DNA from: Candidatus Harpocratesius repetitus
Lineage (GTDB): Archaea; Asgardarchaeota; Lokiarchaeia; Sigyniarchaeales; Promethearchaeaceae
Length of the DNA stretch: 32,000 nt
NCBI GenBank assembly: GCA_021498095.1
Contig: JAIZWK010000001.1
Coordinates: forward strand, 1,110,001 to 1,142,000
Direction of reading: 5' to 3'
Shown: piece by piece, positions 23,482 through 31,625 of the stretch
Position numbering within the stretch: position 1 is the stretch's first letter
Layout of the letters: every line of letters starts with the position of its first letter
The notes under the pieces: model-generated
Told to the model about the DNA's origin: nothing
Databases searched by the model: none
The model's input: the letters and a program-made list of their open reading frames with translations, nothing else
Position numbers and translations under genes: made by a program

Positions 23482-24459
23482 ATGAAAACAATGGGCGACA
23501 AATGTCCTTCATGCGGAAAAGCTGAATTAGTTGAAATGATTCCTGGATTGAGAATGTGTCCAAGTTGCAATAAAATGTTTCGTTCTTCAGATTCTTCAAG
23601 TGCAATGGCAAAAGAATCAATTGGAATTATCAAGGAAGGAGAATATTTTATGAATAACACTTCACTCAATCCAAAATGGGAAATTGCAGAGAAAGGGATT
23701 ACTATCTTTCGTGAAAAAAATAAATCATGGATGGCTGTTTTACTGTGTCATTCACCTTCCTTTGAATCGATAAAATATATTCGATTATCTTGGTGGAAAA
23801 AGTCCATCAATTCTCATGCAGGAATGTTTAAAATCCAAGATATTGACGTTTTAGAAAATACGATTATTGCCTTAAAACGGATCGATGCAATGTTCGATGA
23901 TAGTTTTAATGTAAAGGCAGGAACAACCATTGATTATGATCCTGTTCCTGAAAGGGTTAATTTTACATCTGAATTGCCCAAATTTAATGAAACTAAGAGA
24001 ATTTGTCCTAAATGTGGGCGAAAGATGAACCGGAGTTCTAATAAGCGTTTTTATGAATGTGAACGATGTGGAGAAATTGTAATAATGGAAGAAGGAAAAC
24101 CCATTATTGATCTTCCTGCTAGTTCCCTTCCTTTAGCTTTTTCATCGAATTTTCCAATCAATTATTATTTACCCGATTACGGTATTTCTGTAAAAATTGG
24201 TATGGCAGATTGGAAAGCAATTGTTATTATTCACGCTAAAGAAAATCCAGAAAAGAAGTGGTTACGATTCTATTGGTGGACTAGGAACCTTCAACAATAT
24301 ATGACGAATAAATATTCATTAGGAAGTGCACAAGGGCTGCGATGGGAAACTAAAAAGGGATTATTATCTCCAAATATATATGAAAAAGCGCATATTCCTC
24401 GAATAATAGATGCTCTTGAAAAAATGAGAGAAGAATGGCTATCTGCTAAAAAGAAATAA
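23482..24459 (+). CDS. Protein with two Zn ribbons and two internally repeated domains (PC4-like)
   Basis: CPSCG..CPSC; CPKCG..CERCG; repeats YIRLSWWKK..IQDIDVLENTIIALKRI and WLRFYWW..WETKKGL..HIPRIIDALEKM. Confidence 0.75.
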   Translation: MKTMGDKCPSCGKAELVEMIPGLRMCPSCNKMFRSSDSSSAMAKESIGIIKEGEYFMNNTSLNPKWEIAEKGITIFREKNKSWMAVLLCHSPSFESIKYIRLSWWKKSINSHAGMFKIQDIDVLENTIIALKRIDAMFDDSFNVKAGTTIDYDPVPERVNFTSELPKFNETKRICPKCGRKMNRSSNKRFYECERCGEIVIMEEGKPIIDLPASSLPLAFSSNFPINYYLPDYGISVKIGMADWKAIVIIHAKENPEKKWLRFYWWTRNLQQYMTNKYSLGSAQGLRWETKKGLLSPNIYEKAHIPRIIDALEKMREEWLSAKKK

Positions 24460-24822: not shown

Positions 24823-25353
24823 TTACTGAATATAAGATTCTACTAGATCAATGATCTTCCTATTTCCTGTTTCCTTATTTTTAGCAATGAATTTAACTAA
24901 AACAAATTTTCCTACCGGATCTAAGTAAAGGTATCCATCATCTGATAAAACTAACCAATGGAGATCATTAATTAGACTATTAATTTCTTTAAGGAATTTC
25001 TCAAAAGCTACAGATATTTCATCCCAAAGGGCACGTTCATTCGGTTGTTGTTTATATATATAATAAGAAACTATAAAAAAAACCGCCAATGTTTGTTTAT
25101 TAACTAATGTTAAATTTAAATGCTCGTTTGGTTGATCAAGACCAATAACATATACTTTTTCTGAGTTTTCATTTTTAAAATAATACATCATCATACCTAA
25201 AGCTTTTAGATGAGGCAATCCCTTCTTTAGCAAATTTGGTGTATTTTTTCCAAAAATATTGATTAATTCAGTTTCTAAAACCTTTTTTTTGTTAAAAATA
25301 TACTGGAAAATTTCTTTGATTTGTTCTGATTCTGGTTTTGGCATATTTTTCAT
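24823..25353 (-). CDS. Tandem winged-helix KITE-like protein (Nse1/ScpB-like)
   Basis: 176 aa with two WH-like halves; HWLVLSDDGYLYLDPVG resembles the end of the Nse1 WH-B domain; last gene of the SMC cluster. Confidence 0.6.
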   Translation of the reverse strand: MKNMPKPESEQIKEIFQYIFNKKKVLETELINIFGKNTPNLLKKGLPHLKALGMMMYYFKNENSEKVYVIGLDQPNEHLNLTLVNKQTLAVFFIVSYYIYKQQPNERALWDEISVAFEKFLKEINSLINDLHWLVLSDDGYLYLDPVGKFVLVKFIAKNKETGNRKIIDLVESYIQ

Positions 25354-25393: not shown

Positions 25394-26335
25394 TTATCCT
25401 AAATTCATTAGAATCGGTCGTTTGCTTAAATCTCCCTTTTTAATAAATGGTTGAAGTGCTTTCCATTCATCGTAAGTAATTCCTAAAATTATTGTCGAAC
25501 TATAATTATCTTCTTGGCTTTTTTTTTTGCTATTTGGTTGAATTATTATTTTATACATTCCAGATTCTTCAATTTCATCTTCTGAACTTGGTATAATCTC
25601 AATATAATTATTAGAAACCAAATAACTGATTGCTTGAAGACGCATTAGTGTTTCCATGTAATTTGTTGAAAGAATAAATTTTAATAGTTTTATTTCCTTT
25701 TCTTCCTTCAAAGTCTCAAATATTTCCATTATTTGATCATAAAATTCATTCGCTTCTATATTATTCTCAGTAAATTCTTGTGATTCTGAAAGTGGTACTT
25801 CAATTATATTTTCATCTTTTCTTCTTTTTATTTCAAGAGAATGATAGATTTTCCTAATTACCTCTTTATTCTCCTGAAAATAATTATCAGGTAAAATTAC
25901 AGGATATATTACATGGATGGGAATTGCAATTTTTAAATCATCTTTTTCCTGATTTAATAATGGGATAATAAAATTCTCTTGAAAATTATCGAACTTTTTT
26001 TTATTTTTTAAAAAATTATGTAATTGTTTATTTCTTAATTGCCATCTTGGATCACTTTTCTCTGTAATAATGTTATTCAATTTTTCTTGTTGTTTCGAGT
26101 TAATATCGTTGATAGATTCATATCCTGTTATTCCTCTCTTTAGATCATCTTCATCACCAATAATATTTCGAATTTTTCTTAATATTTGAATCTCTTCATC
26201 AATATTAACATCGAATGGATCAATTTTTCCTACGAAAACTTCATTAGCTTTTTGAATGATGGCTTTATTATGTGAGATTATCTCTCTTTTCCGTTTTTCT
26301 AAATCTTCCTTTAACTCTGACTTGTTACTCATCAT
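25394..26335 (-). CDS. Kleisin (ScpA-like)
   Basis: N-terminal GKIDPFDVNI (archaeal ScpA GEIDPWDIDI-like); C-terminal WH-like IKLLKFIL..ETLMRLQAISYLVSNNYIEI; SMC neighbourhood. Confidence 0.75.
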   Translation of the reverse strand: MMSNKSELKEDLEKRKREIISHNKAIIQKANEVFVGKIDPFDVNIDEEIQILRKIRNIIGDEDDLKRGITGYESINDINSKQQEKLNNIITEKSDPRWQLRNKQLHNFLKNKKKFDNFQENFIIPLLNQEKDDLKIAIPIHVIYPVILPDNYFQENKEVIRKIYHSLEIKRRKDENIIEVPLSESQEFTENNIEANEFYDQIMEIFETLKEEKEIKLLKFILSTNYMETLMRLQAISYLVSNNYIEIIPSSEDEIEESGMYKIIIQPNSKKKSQEDNYSSTIILGITYDEWKALQPFIKKGDLSKRPILMNLG

Positions 26336-26354: not shown

Positions 26355-27323
26355 TTATTTCCCTATTTCTACATCAAATTTATATTTTTTTTTCCAATTT
26401 TTACAAAAATCCTGCAATCTATAGTAGAAATTAAAATCAGGTCCCAGAATATAAGTTTTATTACGAATTGATCCTTCATCTTTTTCTAAGATCTTCATAT
26501 TAACCAAAATGGAGAGTAATTCATTTACTTTTGGTGAAAGAATTTTTGTAAAACGTCTTAAATTCCCTAAGGATTGGTAATTGTCAAGGACCACTTGATT
26601 TACTAGCAGGATCATATTAAAAGTATCTAATTTTGTAAAAAAATTCGACCATATTGCATCGAATTCAATTTCAGTTTTTCGAGATTTCCTCGATAAAACA
26701 CCTTTTTCATATTCATTTATATAAAAAATATATAAACTCCAATAGAAATTTACAATTTTTTCGCCCAAAGAAGTGATTTTATAGGTTTTTGTAATATTAA
26801 ATTTCTTTGCATAATTGTGTTTTTCAAAATAAGTTAAATTATATCTAATTTTTGGCCCTGAACTTAGATATTTATAGTTTTTTTGTAATATTTTGTAATT
26901 TACTGCCTTATTTTCATAAGATAACCTTGATAAAAGCATAATTTTATCCAGATTTCGCAAAAAGATTGTAAAATTGGGTATTTCACCTAAACTCAAATCG
27001 AATTTTTGAAATATTTCTACCATTTTTTTTCCCAAATCAGTTAACCCAAAAATAGAAGGGTCATTAATATCATTTTCTTCAACCAATTCGAGATCAATTA
27101 ATTTATTTATGATTAGCGATTTGATTTTTTCTTCACGATAATGAATATTTTTTACTTTTTTTTTAATCGCAGTGAGATTAGCACCTTCAATTGGATATAA
27201 ATATATCATAACAGAAAAATATGGGTGTCTAACGATTTTTAGTAAATTTAAACAAATGATCATTTCTAGATCGATTTTGTTAAATTTTTTTAATTCATTT
27301 ATCAATACTTTATTTTCCATCAA
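26355..27323 (-). CDS. Protein with three winged-helix repeats
   Basis: Three helix-then-wing endings: LIDLELVE..FGLTDLGKK, FEKHNYAK..YKITSLGEK, LVNMKILE..YILGP. Likely ATG at 27320. Confidence 0.7.
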   Translation of the reverse strand: MMENKVLINELKKFNKIDLEMIICLNLLKIVRHPYFSVMIYLYPIEGANLTAIKKKVKNIHYREEKIKSLIINKLIDLELVEENDINDPSIFGLTDLGKKMVEIFQKFDLSLGEIPNFTIFLRNLDKIMLLSRLSYENKAVNYKILQKNYKYLSSGPKIRYNLTYFEKHNYAKKFNITKTYKITSLGEKIVNFYWSLYIFYINEYEKGVLSRKSRKTEIEFDAIWSNFFTKLDTFNMILLVNQVVLDNYQSLGNLRRFTKILSPKVNELLSILVNMKILEKDEGSIRNKTYILGPDFNFYYRLQDFCKNWKKKYKFDVEIGK

Positions 27324-27388: not shown

Positions 27389-30300
27389 TTATGCTATAAC
27401 TGTATTATTTTTAGTTTTCACACAAGTAATATAATTCATTCCTTCGGTCATTTCTTTTAAGGAAATATCTGGAGCAACTAATATAAATTGAGGTGAAATC
27501 TTTCCGGTGAAATCGCTTTCTTTTAATTCCATTGCCCTAGATATCATATTTGGTATTTGAAGTATTAAATTACGTTTACTTACTGGATCTAATCCACGAT
27601 CAAATTCATCAATTGCGGTGATTGGAGTCACACTTTGAGTCTGGAGTGCTAAAACTAAAGCAATAATCCCTGCTTGTTTCTGCCCACTACTATGTTGTGC
27701 AATTGGTCGAGGCTCTTCTAATCCAAATTGAGTGTGAATGATCAATTTAGGAATGTTTGATTCTTCATTGATTTCAATTGTTCCATCTGCTCCAATTGAG
27801 TTTAAAATTTCCTTAAATAATGAGTTCACATGATCAACTTTTTCAGTAACTGTATACGAAATTTTCTCACTCCATTCTTTTCCTTCTTTTTCAAGTGAAT
27901 CAATTGATTTTGTATATTCCTTAATTTTTTCTTGTAAACTTGCAATAAATGCTTTAGATTGTTGGTATAATTCTTCGTCTTCATCAGTAATTTTCATTTT
28001 TTTTATTTCATTACTTAATCGTTGAACTCGATCTTTAAGAATAATTTTTTCAGGAATTTTTTCAGGAATCTTTTGTCCTTTGAATTTTTCTTCCAATATT
28101 TCACGTTCATTATTCAATTTCACAAGGATATTTTGAGTCTGTTTTAAAAAGGCTTCAATTTCATAAATTTCATTTTTGATTTCATTAACTGATTCTTTTT
28201 GGTCGCGAACCTTTTCTTCCCATTCTGCTTTTTCCTTTTCACTTTTTTCAACTTCCTTTTTTAAATCCAGAAATTTGCTTTCAAATTCATGTAGTTTATT
28301 TTCCTGTGTTTCTAATTCTTCAAGAATAGATTCTAATTCTTTTTCTTTTAATTGAGTTGAATTATCTAATTTCTCCAGTTCTTTCTTAATTTGCTCTATT
28401 TGATGATTAAAATTTTTTATTAATCTATTAGGATCTTTTTCATGTTTTGCTTGTTCAACTTTAGTTATTTGATCTTCAAGCTTTCCGATTTGCTTTAATA
28501 TTTCGTCTCTTTTCTGGTGTAAATTTTGGATATTTTTATCAGTTCTTAATGCATTTCTTCGTTGATTGGAGAGACTTTTCAAATCTCTTTCAAGATCTAT
28601 TAATTGTTGTTGGATGTTTTTTATCATACTATTAGTATCTGTTAATTTCTCTCCAATTGAAACAATAAGTTTTGATTGCCCTGGTGATCTTGTCGACCCT
28701 TCTTTACTTCTATAGGAAAATCCGTCTATCGACATAAATTGAAAGCGATATTTCAAAGACATTTCGAGTATGAATTTTGCATTTGTTTCGTCAATTAATA
28801 CATTATCACCACCTGAATGAATTCGGGCGTAATAAATTGCGTTTTGATCACCAACTAATACTTTATGTACGAATTCAACATCTCTACCTGACTCTTTACG
28901 GATGGTATTAATTTTACCATCAGTAATAAATACTCTTTGAGGTAAATTTTGGGGATCTAAGTATCCAATACTAATTCTCCTAAAATCGTTTGTAGATTTT
29001 CTCAATTCGTGAAGTCTATCGAATGAGTCTTTATCTAGTGCAACAAAGTCAAAAAGAATATTGTTTAAAGAAAGAGATGCGGCATCTCGCCATTTTTCAT
29101 GGTGAGGTTGAACGTCTAAAAGTTGATATATAGGACCAATAACTTTTTTGTGCAAATTGGCTTTTTTTATCTGATCTTTAAAAAGTTGTGCAATAAGTAC
29201 TCTTCTGTTCTGTTTTCCGCTCCCTTTTTTATCTCTACTTTGTTCTTCAGCAGAAAGTTCTCTTTTTTTGTTCTCTAAATCGCGTCGGGTCTTTCGCAAG
29301 TGTTTCTCTTTTTTATCAAATTCAATTATAATTTCGTTATTTCTTTTTTTTATTTTATTCTCAATTATTTCTATTTTATTTTCTAATTCTTTTTTTTGAG
29401 AATTTAATTCCGCTAATCGATTATTATATTCAGATAATATATCTTTCTCTTTGGTTGTTCTTTTAATATTGTTAATTTTTAATTTCAATTCTGAAATTTT
29501 AGTTTCTTTAATTTTTTTTTCTTTGCTAAATTTTTGGAGTTCTCGATTTATCTTCGCTTCTTGATTTGATAGTGCTGATTTACTTCCTTTAATCTGATTA
29601 TAGATTTCTGTTCCTTTTTTTAATTTTTTCTTTTTATTTACAAAAATCTCATTAAATTCATTATATTTTACAGAAATTTCTTTTAGTTTTTTCTCTTCTT
29701 TTGATAGATTCTTTTGAAATTCTTTTAATTTTTCCTGGTTTTGATTTAAATCCCTATTATTTTTATTAATTTTCTTTTGGATTTCAATCAAATCTGCATA
29801 TTCTAATAATTTAGAAGTTTTCTTCAATTCTTTTTGTTTTTCTTGCTTTTCTAGCCATTGTCTATGCAAAATTTCCAATTTTGAATTTTCCAATTTTTTT
29901 TGACTAATTTTTTGTTCCAGATCACCTTTTTCTTCTCTTTTTGTTTTAAGGTTTTTTATAATCATTTTATATTTTTCTTCAATTTTCTTTAAACCTAATT
30001 TTCCCATAAAAATGTTATATCTATTTTCAGGTGAGTCGTTAATAAAAGCTAAGAAATCTTCAGCTGGAACAAAAACTAATTCATCATTTGCATCAATTCC
30101 AACATTAGAATATGCTTCAAGAAGATCCTTCACATCTGCTCCAGACAATTTATCGAACTTTCGATTATCTGGATTATAAATATAAAAAGTTGTCCGACCT
30201 GCTGGATGGATTTTTCTTCTTATTTTTACTTCTTCATTCCACAGATATTTCTTATTAAATTTGAGATTTTTTGAATGCAAGATACGTTGTTTCTCATCAA

Positions 30301-30562
30301 TCCCTTGAGGATTTCGCAATGATATTTCAATTGTTGCTTCTTTTTCTTTATTTCTAAGATAATCAGTCAAACGTTCCATTCGAATTGTGCGAGATCTTAA
30401 TCCAAATATTAATCGTAAAGCGTCTAAGAACAAGCTTTTTCCAGATCCATTTTTTCCTGTTAAAACTGTGATTCCATCGGGTAACGAAACTGAAACATTG
30501 TCATATAGTAAGAAATTATCAATTTTTATATTTTTAATTAGTCCTAATGCATTTGTTACCAT
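27389..30562 (-). CDS. SMC-family ATPase, Smc5/6-like
   Basis: Walker A GKNGSGKS, long coiled coils either side of a hinge (VIGPIYQLLDV..WRDAASLSLNNILFDFV), signature HSSGQ, Walker B/D-loop AIDEFDRGLD, QFILVAP. Confidence 0.9.
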   Translation of the reverse strand: MVTNALGLIKNIKIDNFLLYDNVSVSLPDGITVLTGKNGSGKSLFLDALRLIFGLRSRTIRMERLTDYLRNKEKEATIEISLRNPQGIDEKQRILHSKNLKFNKKYLWNEEVKIRRKIHPAGRTTFYIYNPDNRKFDKLSGADVKDLLEAYSNVGIDANDELVFVPAEDFLAFINDSPENRYNIFMGKLGLKKIEEKYKMIIKNLKTKREEKGDLEQKISQKKLENSKLEILHRQWLEKQEKQKELKKTSKLLEYADLIEIQKKINKNNRDLNQNQEKLKEFQKNLSKEEKKLKEISVKYNEFNEIFVNKKKKLKKGTEIYNQIKGSKSALSNQEAKINRELQKFSKEKKIKETKISELKLKINNIKRTTKEKDILSEYNNRLAELNSQKKELENKIEIIENKIKKRNNEIIIEFDKKEKHLRKTRRDLENKKRELSAEEQSRDKKGSGKQNRRVLIAQLFKDQIKKANLHKKVIGPIYQLLDVQPHHEKWRDAASLSLNNILFDFVALDKDSFDRLHELRKSTNDFRRISIGYLDPQNLPQRVFITDGKINTIRKESGRDVEFVHKVLVGDQNAIYYARIHSGGDNVLIDETNAKFILEMSLKYRFQFMSIDGFSYRSKEGSTRSPGQSKLIVSIGEKLTDTNSMIKNIQQQLIDLERDLKSLSNQRRNALRTDKNIQNLHQKRDEILKQIGKLEDQITKVEQAKHEKDPNRLIKNFNHQIEQIKKELEKLDNSTQLKEKELESILEELETQENKLHEFESKFLDLKKEVEKSEKEKAEWEEKVRDQKESVNEIKNEIYEIEAFLKQTQNILVKLNNEREILEEKFKGQKIPEKIPEKIILKDRVQRLSNEIKKMKITDEDEELYQQSKAFIASLQEKIKEYTKSIDSLEKEGKEWSEKISYTVTEKVDHVNSLFKEILNSIGADGTIEINEESNIPKLIIHTQFGLEEPRPIAQHSSGQKQAGIIALVLALQTQSVTPITAIDEFDRGLDPVSKRNLILQIPNMISRAMELKESDFTGKISPQFILVAPDISLKEMTEGMNYITCVKTKNNTVIA

Positions 30563-30641: not shown

Positions 30642-31625
30642 CTAAGATTCACCTGATAAAACATCGTAATCAGCATTGAAGTTATAATTTTCTTTATTCT
30701 CTGATTCAGAATCGATAGAAGAATCTTCTTTATTATTGATTTTTGAAATTGATTTTATTGCTTCCATTAAAATTTTGAGGGAGAATTCAATTTTTTCATG
30801 TTTATCTTTTCTATTTGCATAACTTCGTAAAACTGCAATTTGAAAGACACGTTCGATATCAGCTCCAGTCATTGAAGTTGATGCCCTAAGTACTCCTGAT
30901 TTATTTTCATCATCATTTAAATTAATATTCACATCAAAATTATCATTTTCACGCAATTTTTGAAGGAAATGTTCGATTAATTGAAAACGCATTTCATCAG
31001 ATGGAGGTGGGAAATCAATTTTAAATGTAAAACGCCTCCACACCGCTTTATCTAGTTGATTTGGATGATTTGTAGCTCCAATAATTCCCAAAGGAAGTTT
31101 TTTTTCTAAAACCAAATCCAATTCTTGTAAAAATGAAATTACCATCCTTTTGATTTCTCCGACATCGCTTTTATTTGCCCGTTCACTTGAAATAGCATCT
31201 ATTTCATCAAAGAAAAGAATAATCGGATTTTTTGTTCGAGCATACATTTCTGCTTGTCGTAAAAGATTTTTTACGCGATTAAGAGATTCTCCTAAAAGTG
31301 AACCAATCAAAGCATTCGAAAAAACAACAATAATTGGGATTTTGTATTCCTTTGCAAATGCTTTTGCTAAAGTGGTTTTTCCTGTTCCAGGAGGCCCAAC
31401 TAGTAATGCAGAAAAAATTATTGGAATAGGGAATTCAATAAAGGTTGAATCTTTTGAATAATCGTTTAACGCCTTAAAAAAAGAATTCAAATAGGTTTTT
31501 TGTTCATCTAAACCTAATAATTCGTCTTTTTTAATTTTAATATCATTTGGCATATATATTTCCCCAAACTGCCCTAAATATTGTTCTATTTTTGCTTTAA
31601 TGCTAGTATAATCTTCTGGTTTCAT
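30642..31625 (-). CDS. Single-domain AAA+ ATPase
   Basis: LVGPPGTGKTT, LFFDEIDAI..R..DVGEIKRMV, IGATNHPNQLDKAVWRRF. Confidence 0.92.
   Translation of the reverse strand: MKPEDYTSIKAKIEQYLGQFGEIYMPNDIKIKKDELLGLDEQKTYLNSFFKALNDYSKDSTFIEFPIPIIFSALLVGPPGTGKTTLAKAFAKEYKIPIIVVFSNALIGSLLGESLNRVKNLLRQAEMYARTKNPIILFFDEIDAISSERANKSDVGEIKRMVISFLQELDLVLEKKLPLGIIGATNHPNQLDKAVWRRFTFKIDFPPPSDEMRFQLIEHFLQKLRENDNFDVNINLNDDENKSGVLRASTSMTGADIERVFQIAVLRSYANRKDKHEKIEFSLKILMEAIKSISKINNKEDSSIDSESENKENYNFNADYDVLSGES

Follow-up and report, generated by a model that had tools for sequence, protein, structure and literature searches.

An AAA+-linked, Smc5/6-related SMC protein with alanine at the Q-loop glutamine position in Candidatus Harpocratesius repetitus

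The window analyzed here, a stretch of 32,000 nucleotides from the archaeon Candidatus Harpocratesius repetitus (assembly GCA_021498095.1, contig JAIZWK010000001.1, positions 1,110,001 to 1,142,000), lies in a closed 4.36-Mb chromosome with a G+C content of 31.0% and carries a minus-strand operon (27.2% G+C) that encodes an SMC protein (for structural maintenance of chromosomes) of 1057 amino acids directly after an AAA+ ATPase. In SMC and ABC ATPases, the glutamine of the Q-loop is counted among the invariant motifs. In this SMC protein the position is occupied by alanine and the first glycine of the signature motif is replaced by serine, and both changes characterize a rare, apparently undescribed subfamily, here designated clade A, of an Asgard SMC family related to Smc5/6. 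The SMC gene and its motifs are located in the window as follows.

27389..30562, minus strand: SMC gene (1057 amino acids), member of clade A, the AAA+-linked subfamily within the Smc5/6-related SMC family of Asgard archaea, as judged from the open reading frame, its translation, profile matches, a structural model, and trees
30434..30457, minus strand: Walker A (P-loop) motif GKNGSGKS, residues 36-43, with G36, N38, G39, G41, and K42 invariant in the subfamily
30056..30073, minus strand: Q-loop position FVPAED, residues 164-169, with Ala167 in place of Gln and Glu168 at +1
28643..29155, minus strand: hinge region, about residues 470-640, an alpha/beta segment between the arms (predicted local distance difference test [pLDDT] score of about 85-94) with no Pfam SMC_hinge match
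27680..27694, minus strand: signature (C-loop) motif HSSGQ, residues 957-961, retaining the Ser and second Gly but with Ser instead of the first Gly
27587..27616, minus strand: Walker B motif and D-loop AIDEFDRGLD, residues 983-992, with the catalytic Glu986 present and D985, E986, and D992 invariant
27467..27493, minus strand: H-loop position PQFILVAPD, residues 1024-1032, with Pro for the switch His, as in Smc5/6, and with Q1025 and P1031 invariant in the subfamily

The motif strings quoted in a preliminary description of this DNA (FVPAED, HSSGQ, QFILVAP, and one of the DEFDRGLDP type) are all present in the translation and were mapped back to the coordinates above. Of the motifs of the SMC superfamily, Walker A, GxxGxGK(S/T), is represented by GKNGSGKS and Walker B, hhhhDE, by AIDE, both invariant in the subfamily. 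The Q-loop glutamine is missing, with Ala167 lying under it in every alignment. Compared with the (L/Q)SGG(E/Q) consensus, the signature HSSGQ has serine for the first glycine, and its S958 and G960 are invariant across all of the families aligned. The lack of a switch histidine and the mixture of a DEFD element with a G(L/M)D element, both pointed out in the preliminary description, were upheld by comparison with Smc6-type (DEFDVFMD and QFIFLTPQ) and Smc5-type (DEINQGMD and QYFLVSPK) sequences. The hinge had been described as lacking a GX6GX3GG motif. This is correct, but the motif is also absent from all four SMC paralogues of the genome, including the canonical one, so that it does not discriminate; a better statement is that Pfam SMC_hinge was not detected in the 1057-residue protein, whereas it scored 111 bits in the canonical paralogue of the same genome.

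In the AlphaFold2 model of the protein (mean pLDDT of 82.5, with head blocks mostly >90), helices 192-467 and 643-921 form two long antiparallel arms, with an alpha/beta hinge at ~470-640 and an ABC-type head. A strand at residues 164-166 followed by a helix at residues 167-175 provides the usual setting of a Q-loop.

Ala167 was placed under the Q-loop glutamine in MAFFT alignments with canonical SMC proteins and with Smc5/Smc6-type proteins, as well as in a hidden Markov model (HMM) alignment of about 190 relatives. When the subfamily profile was compared with PDB chains, the alanine fell under the Q of VLTQEM in an Smc6 protein (9lwi_A) and of FLSQDA in yeast Smc6 (7ylm_B), with Glu168 aligned to the Glu/Asp found at +1 in these two proteins. 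The spacing between the Q site and a downstream S-P anchor (+10) is that of canonical SMC proteins, and a conservation scan of the subfamily revealed no conserved glutamine anywhere in the N-terminal head lobe. Could the unusual residues nevertheless be an artefact, produced by sequencing error, by drift private to one genome, or by a misalignment that hides the true glutamine? We rejected this explanation, which the preliminary description had itself raised, as extremely improbable: nothing was found in its favour, the MAFFT, HMM, and PDB-profile alignments are concordant, and the same states, Ala or Gly at the Q site and S-(S/T)-G in the signature, recur in homologues belonging to about 12 clusters at 50% identity. 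Of the metagenome loci, the two whose sequence extends to the Q-loop (L061 and L062) have the clade A states FVPAED and FITGED. Both the change from glutamine to alanine and the SSG signature are thus conserved features of close homologues rather than peculiarities of one sequence.

Relatives were collected by a profile search of 1.84 billion representatives and then compiled into a motif table. Head-domain trees were constructed with FastTree and with IQ-TREE (LG+C20 PMSF); of the eukaryotic Smc5 and Smc6 proteins, these trees covered the Smc6 type. The labels clade A and clade C denote our own groups in these trees and not the clade names of published archaeal trees. The active-site states of the Asgard groups are given below.

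Clade A: Q-loop FVPAED, FVPAEE, FVPADD, FITGED, FISGED, FVDGED, or FVPGEE; signature (H/Q)S(S/T)G(Q/E); D-loop mostly DEFD(K/R)GLD
Small branch, consisting of a protein of genome G249 together with a single cluster of eight metagenome proteins (support, 100): Q-loop FMSQHT; signature LSAGQ
Clade C, a large sister group of 44 representatives (support, 99): Glu at the Q site in 33 and Gln in 4; signature LSGGE; D-loop DEFTQ(K/R)LD

Clade A has a support of 100 in both trees, and its members, which share 22-47% identity, come from metagenome-assembled genomes of Loki-, Hel-, and Hod-type Asgard archaea (bearing the names Promethearchaeota, Helarchaeota, and Hodarchaeota). Every member has Ala or Gly at the Q site followed by an acidic residue, and Ser or Thr at position 959 wherever the signature is readable. 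The Walker A residues, D985, E986, D992, S958, G960, and F164 are invariant or nearly so within the clade (F164 without exception), and at least 11 of 12 members share E168. Clade C belongs to the same family (joint support, 96-98), and like clade A most of its members lack the glutamine, have no H-loop His, and possess an IDEF Walker B motif. However, it has Glu, or sometimes Gln, at the site, a canonical LSGGE signature, a TQ(K/R)LD D-loop, and no adjacent AAA+ gene in the eight loci examined. Its proteins are about 1000 amino acids long, and the SMC gene is followed by three genes for products of about 260, 205, and 155 amino acids. While clade C is common in several Asgard families (27 of 31, 12 of 12, and 18 of 19 genomes), clade A is far rarer: only 3 of 400 Asgard genomes carry it, namely, that of the window (G000), G140, and G079. 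Because G079 contains clade A and clade C genes, the two groups are paralogous.

The second gene that characterizes the clade A loci precedes the SMC gene.

30642..31625, minus strand: AAA+ ATPase (327 amino acids) resembling IetA and belonging to the classic clade, with its catalytic motifs complete and a stop codon 79 nucleotides upstream of the SMC start

This protein scored 104 bits against Pfam AAA, 189.6 bits against the PADLOC IetA model, and 163.5 bits against the NCBIfam IteA model (cut-off, 510). Its homologue lies directly before the SMC gene in all six clade A loci with upstream sequence, including those of G140, three metagenome contigs, and G079, and the AAA+ gene is intact in each; this gives comparative support to the suggestion of the preliminary description that the SMC ATPase may depend on a partner. 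Overall, an AAA+ gene adjoins the SMC gene in eight SMC loci, comprising those of clade A, the FMSQHT branch (G249), and the FTRKDT branch (G307). In G249 and G307 (long-branch, Lys at the Q site), the end of the AAA+ gene overlaps the SMC start. Nine AAA+ homologues, from these eight loci and from a locus without an SMC gene in genome G142, have all kept Walker A, Walker B, sensor 1, and the Arg-Arg pair. Catalytically intact and consistently encoded next to the SMC protein, on the upstream side, the AAA+ protein is likely a regulator or remodeller of the SMC complex and could serve as its loader, unloader, or reset factor.

The SMC protein of clade A is closer to Smc5 and Smc6 than to other SMC classes. 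A single-sequence search of PDB chains retrieved yeast Smc5 (5e-9) and Smc6 (3.5e-8) as the best matches, and the clade A profile scored 155 and 152 bits with Smc6 and 140 with Smc5, in full-length alignments, compared to 99 with Smc4 and 91 with prokaryotic Smc. Foldseek with the AlphaFold2 model gave Smc6, Smc6, and Smc5 in the top ranks, and the full-length matches were to Smc6, Smc5, and Smc4. In the trees, the three Asgard groups cluster together (support, 96 and 98) as a sister to the Smc6-type eukaryotic group (FastTree, 100; IQ-TREE, 98). The best profile and fold matches, eukaryotic Smc5 and Smc6 (yeast 7ylm, 7qcd, and 8i4x; also 9lwi), are of a similar size, about 1050-1110 amino acids, and likewise have no H-loop His, with Q-x3-(I/V)-x-P there instead. 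An acid directly follows the Q-loop position in the eukaryotic proteins and in clade A alike, and clade A combines a DEF Walker B as in Smc6 with a G-(L/M)-D D-loop as in Smc5. The eukaryotic proteins differ in that they have kept the Gln and an SGGE signature and form a heterodimer. Pfam scans of the cluster proteins, which were not followed by a dedicated search, turned up no counterparts of Nse2, Nse5, or Nse6. The eukaryotic Smc5/6 complex is not known to contain an AAA+ subunit.

The preliminary description had regarded the protein as an Smc5/6 relative from before the duplication. The profiles, the Foldseek ranking, and both trees bear out the relationship but not the plain ancestral status: since the mainstream Asgard sister group has Glu, LSGGE, and no AAA+ neighbour, clade A is better seen as a rare, derived offshoot. 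Archaeal SMC5/6-related SMC-kleisin-kite operons have already been described (Yoshinaga and Inagaki 2021, PMC8665677; van Hooff et al., bioRxiv 10.1101/2024.01.07.573240). Like the SMC proteins of those operons, the present one clusters with eukaryotic Smc5/6 and not with canonical SMC proteins, and it shares its operon with candidate kleisin and winged-helix genes, in a genome that also contains a canonical SMC-ScpB set. Clade A is set apart from them by Ala/Gly at the Gln site, the S-(S/T)-G signature, the live AAA+ gene, and extra genes for hypothetical proteins. Neither the Q-loop state nor an AAA+ neighbour is discussed in these two reports (0 occurrences in bioRxiv 10.1101/2024.01.07.573240 and generic mentions in PMC8665677).

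In condensin, the Q-loop Gln is a Mg2+ ligand that also touches the gamma-phosphate and causes the two head lobes to flex; with a Q-to-L substitution, ATPase activity is lost and ATP is bound with lower affinity (Hassler et al. 2019, PMC6591010). At the base of clade A, the Gln was exchanged for Ala or Gly together with a near-invariant acid at +1, and the first signature Gly for Ser or Thr, with both states kept afterwards. An acid is found at +1 in 17 of 18 representatives with a small residue at the Q site versus 2 of 37 with Glu or Gln there, and Ser or Thr is found in the signature in 14 of 16 small-site members, all of these counts being over related sequences and not over independent events. 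The small-plus-acid pattern has at least two independent origins, one in clade A and the other in an FT(L/M)(A/G)ET sub-branch of clade C. Because clade C has Glu at the Gln site and a small residue goes with the acid at +1, the whole family may hold Mg2+ and water by a carboxylate instead of an amide, supplied at the Q site in clade C and from +1 in clade A. All of the residues required for ATP binding, head engagement, and hydrolysis are present in the ATP pocket (the Walker A Lys, the Asp-Glu pair of Walker B, the Asp of the D-loop, and the Ser and second Gly of the signature), and the strong constraint on them makes it very likely that ATP binding and head engagement have been kept. Considering the role of the condensin Gln and the effect of its replacement, it is plausible that the hydrolysis rate and the Q-loop coupling between the RecA and helical lobes differ from those of canonical SMC proteins, with hydrolysis probably slower or more regulated.

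With moderate confidence, we favour the explanation that the protein is the SMC of a rare, Asgard-specific, AAA+-linked offshoot, which binds ATP, has its Mg2+ ligand moved to Glu168, hydrolyzes ATP in an altered and possibly slow manner, and has the AAA+ protein as its partner, a coupling that would be both physical and functional. Several points weigh against this explanation in addition to the relatedness of the sequences counted above. In one clade C protein (FTGAHT), the Q site is occupied by a small residue but no acid follows at +1. The proposed role of Glu168 at the Mg2+ site derives from sequence comparison, and the identities of the candidate kleisin and kite subunits described below come from sub-threshold matches. 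In addition, the loss of activity in the condensin Q-to-L mutant (PMC6591010) means that a natural Ala could mark a near-dead enzyme.

The last point leads to an alternative in which the SMC is a pseudo-enzyme, a clamp or scaffold that binds ATP but essentially does not hydrolyse it, and the AAA+ ATPase powers loading, release, or remodelling. In its favour, condensin proteins mutated in the Q-loop lose both ATPase activity and affinity for nucleotide (PMC6591010), clade A combines an altered Q-loop with an altered signature, and a live AAA+ gene is always adjacent. We consider it unlikely, because among proteins with 22-47% identity the catalytic Glu986, Glu168, the D-loop, the Asp of Walker B, and the Ser of the signature are invariant or nearly so, which is unexpected if hydrolysis is dispensable. 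The locus of the related, closed genome G142 bears on the same question. Beside galK, at the site occupied by the system in the window, G142 has homologues of the genes for a Zn-ribbon protein, the 423- and 561-residue hypothetical proteins, and the AAA+ protein but no SMC gene, and a 543-residue coiled-coil protein is encoded where the SMC would be. Such an arrangement would be in line with a dispensable SMC ATPase; yet the match of the 543-residue protein to the SMC profile is confined to the coiled coil (20.8 bits; high bias) and no similarity to the SMC head was found, so that its interpretation as a decayed SMC is unsupported.

Following the AAA+ gene, G142 has genes for proteins of 232, 543, and 246 amino acids, the first two without a Pfam match and the last with a weak DDHD match. 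The region (L059:3791-12650) can be described as an eight-gene, SMC-less version of the cluster, consisting of a gene for a 383-residue protein, the Zn-ribbon gene, two genes for hypothetical proteins, the AAA+ gene, and the 232-, 543-, and 246-residue genes.

The content of the site beside galK differs from one related genome to another, and in genome G135 it consists of unrelated genes. The clade A SMC was absent from two genomes of the same genus (87% and 92% complete). The window contains no tRNA gene, and hence no integration-site signal was found. This patchy distribution at a variable site is more in keeping with an accessory role than with a housekeeping one. It also counts against a further alternative, judged quite unlikely, namely, that the substitutions are functionally neutral, that Glu168 fully substitutes for the Gln, that the proteins form an ordinary housekeeping Smc5/6-type complex for repair or chromosome maintenance, and that the AAA+ neighbour is incidental. 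An S-x-G signature does occur with an intact Q-loop in another archaeal SMC family (FLPQER/FSSGE), so Gly-to-Ser can be tolerated, and Glu and Gln interchange at the site in the sister group. However, 3 of 400 Asgard genomes, with two congeneric genomes lacking the gene, is too patchy an occurrence for a housekeeping complex, the galK-adjacent site varies between relatives, and all loci have the AAA+ gene next to the SMC gene, the two reading frames overlapping in two of the branches.

A more specific proposal, which we regard as unlikely, is that of an accessory, defence-like system in which the SMC protein is a hydrolysis-poor, ATP-dependent DNA clamp that is released or reset by a dedicated AAA+ unfoldase. 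Smc5/6 is known to restrict extrachromosomal DNA, and an accessory or defence-like role of the archaeal complex would tie in with this activity. The clamp would then parallel, in archaea, the handling of foreign circular DNA by Smc5/6 in eukaryotes and by Wadjet in bacteria, and the SMC-less eight-gene version in G142 would represent an end point at which the SMC ATPase has been lost altogether. Wadjet (JetABCD), MukBEF, and Lamassu (LmuB) likewise have an SMC-family ATPase in an accessory, patchy gene cluster, and the SMC protein gave weak head-level PADLOC matches to LmuB (61 bits) and JetC (41.5 bits); in Foldseek, JetC and MukB ranked below Smc5/6 and condensin. No nuclease or other effector gene was identified in the cluster, and the other eight genes had no matches to PADLOC partner or effector models. 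Membership in any of these three systems was rejected on the basis of the weak PADLOC scores, the absence of an effector, and the placement of the protein by sequence and tree with Smc5/6 instead of MukB or JetC.

Returning to the favoured explanation of an AAA+-linked offshoot with a relocated Mg2+ ligand, the closest prokaryotic relatives of eukaryotic Smc5/6 have, as a family, given up the Q-loop Gln, and most carry Glu. They provide a natural set of active-site variants for probing the role of this Gln in SMC motors, and they bear on the origin of Smc5/6-type ATPase regulation. The conserved AAA+ neighbour points to an unreported class of accessory subunit for archaeal SMC complexes.

On the minus strand, the order of the genes is as follows: three genes for hypothetical proteins of 399, 423, and 561 amino acids, the AAA+ gene (327 amino acids), the SMC gene, and genes for proteins of 322, 313, and 176 amino acids. 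From the AAA+ gene onward, the gaps are 79, 65, 19, and 40 nucleotides. The three genes downstream of the SMC gene and a further gene on the opposite strand have the following coordinates and predicted products.

26355..27323, minus strand: 322-residue protein, possibly a winged-helix (kite-like) subunit, encoded 65 nucleotides after the SMC gene, with a syntenic homologue in G140 (38.5% identity)
25394..26335, minus strand: 313-residue candidate kleisin, with a weak Pfam Nse4_C match and with homologues in G140 and two metagenome contigs
24823..25353, minus strand: 176-residue product of the last operon gene, a candidate kite by position, with no significant family match
23482..24459, plus strand: 325-residue Zn-ribbon protein that travels with the system, with weak Zn-ribbon Pfam matches and with homologues in G140 and G142

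G140 has the same gene order as far as its contig extends, and one metagenome contig has 423-like, 561-like, AAA+, and SMC genes in that order; the 423- and 561-like genes are found further upstream of the AAA+ gene in three clade A loci. The presence of one SMC gene per operon fits a homodimer, as had been suggested in the preliminary description, and such a homodimer would presumably be closed by the kleisin-like protein encoded downstream. The candidate kleisin was recognized from a match to Nse4_C (19.3 bits; E value, 1.3e-3; cut-off, 26) that was obtained with this one member only, and its AlphaFold2 model, based on a four-sequence alignment, was too poor (pLDDT of 45) to be used for a fold search. 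For the 322-residue protein, the signs of a winged helix were sub-threshold and came from single members of mixed gene sets: SMC_Nse1 (2e-3), MksE (6e-3), and assorted winged-helix families. When the three sets of accessory genes of clade A were compared by hhalign with those of clade C, no match was found (best probability, 5.8%). ESM Atlas searches with the 561- and 423-residue upstream proteins yielded nothing usable, the best score being 0.78, to helical tethering-complex families.

The Zn-ribbon homologue in G140 (58.8% identity) is located next to the cluster, and that in G142 (58.8%) is directly upstream of the genes for the hypothetical proteins. The Zn-ribbon gene accompanies the cluster in three genomes, with different positions and orientations (the window; L043:10551-10928; L059:4943-5917), and may belong to the system.

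The AAA+ protein had its best scores with the IetA models of PADLOC and NCBIfam. Compared to the IetA model, it is without about the first 95 residues. IetA is normally paired with a subtilase (IetS), and Pfam scans identified no subtilase or other protease encoded in the cluster. Membership in the IetAS system was rejected, considering this and the NCBIfam score of 163.5 bits, which is below the cut-off of 510. In pore loop 1 of the AAA+ protein (residues about 103-113), Leu-Leu replaces the aromatic residue of classic AAA unfoldases. The position is variable among the nine homologues, which have LL, FL, YL, HF, GL, or KL. In G307 (L051:11282-14134), the AAA+-SMC pair is followed not by kleisin-sized genes but by a gene for a 950-residue protein with an Hsp70/actin-like N-terminal domain (HSP70, 1e-14).

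The genome contains four SMC-type genes, and the other three have kept the Gln and SGG(E/Q). The canonical paralogue has 1206 amino acids, an SMC hinge, and ScpB. Another is 1188 amino acids long (G000:C1:1237557-1243949; L009:5558-11950); it also lacks an H-loop His (QFILLMP) while retaining the Gln and an SGGQ signature. Its best PDB matches were Smc3 and Smc, and in the tree it is found with the FLPQER/FSSGE family, outside the group of Smc6 and the Asgard proteins. Its gene is followed by genes for a 268-residue protein and an ScpB-like 186-residue protein and is preceded by one for a 475-residue protein that has no Walker A motif and only marginal similarity to AAA+ proteins (E value, 0.009). 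The fourth SMC protein is unusually long, 1487 amino acids, with canonical motifs (G000:C1:569140-575777; L010:7141-13778), and its gene is followed by genes for a 366-residue protein and a 331-residue ScpB-domain protein.

Some other features were observed in the clade C loci. The last gene of the operons, the third after the SMC gene (L045-L053), encodes a protein of ~150-170 amino acids with a conserved Cys-rich pattern, C..C....C.KC ... CP....H. This product has weak matches to RING fingers (zf-C3HC4, 3e-3) and is possibly an Nse1-like RING protein; the 176-residue protein of the window is without the pattern. In one locus, a TnpB / IS605 OrfB-type gene (L052:5315-6733) is located between the SMC gene and a subtilase gene. 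Such subtilases, of 763-769 amino acids (Peptidase_S8; E values of about 1e-42 to 1e-45), are encoded just upstream of the clade C SMC gene in three genomes of one Asgard family, f18 (L047:5929-8220, L052:739-3030, and L053:11289-13598), and a link to IetA could be a coincidence.

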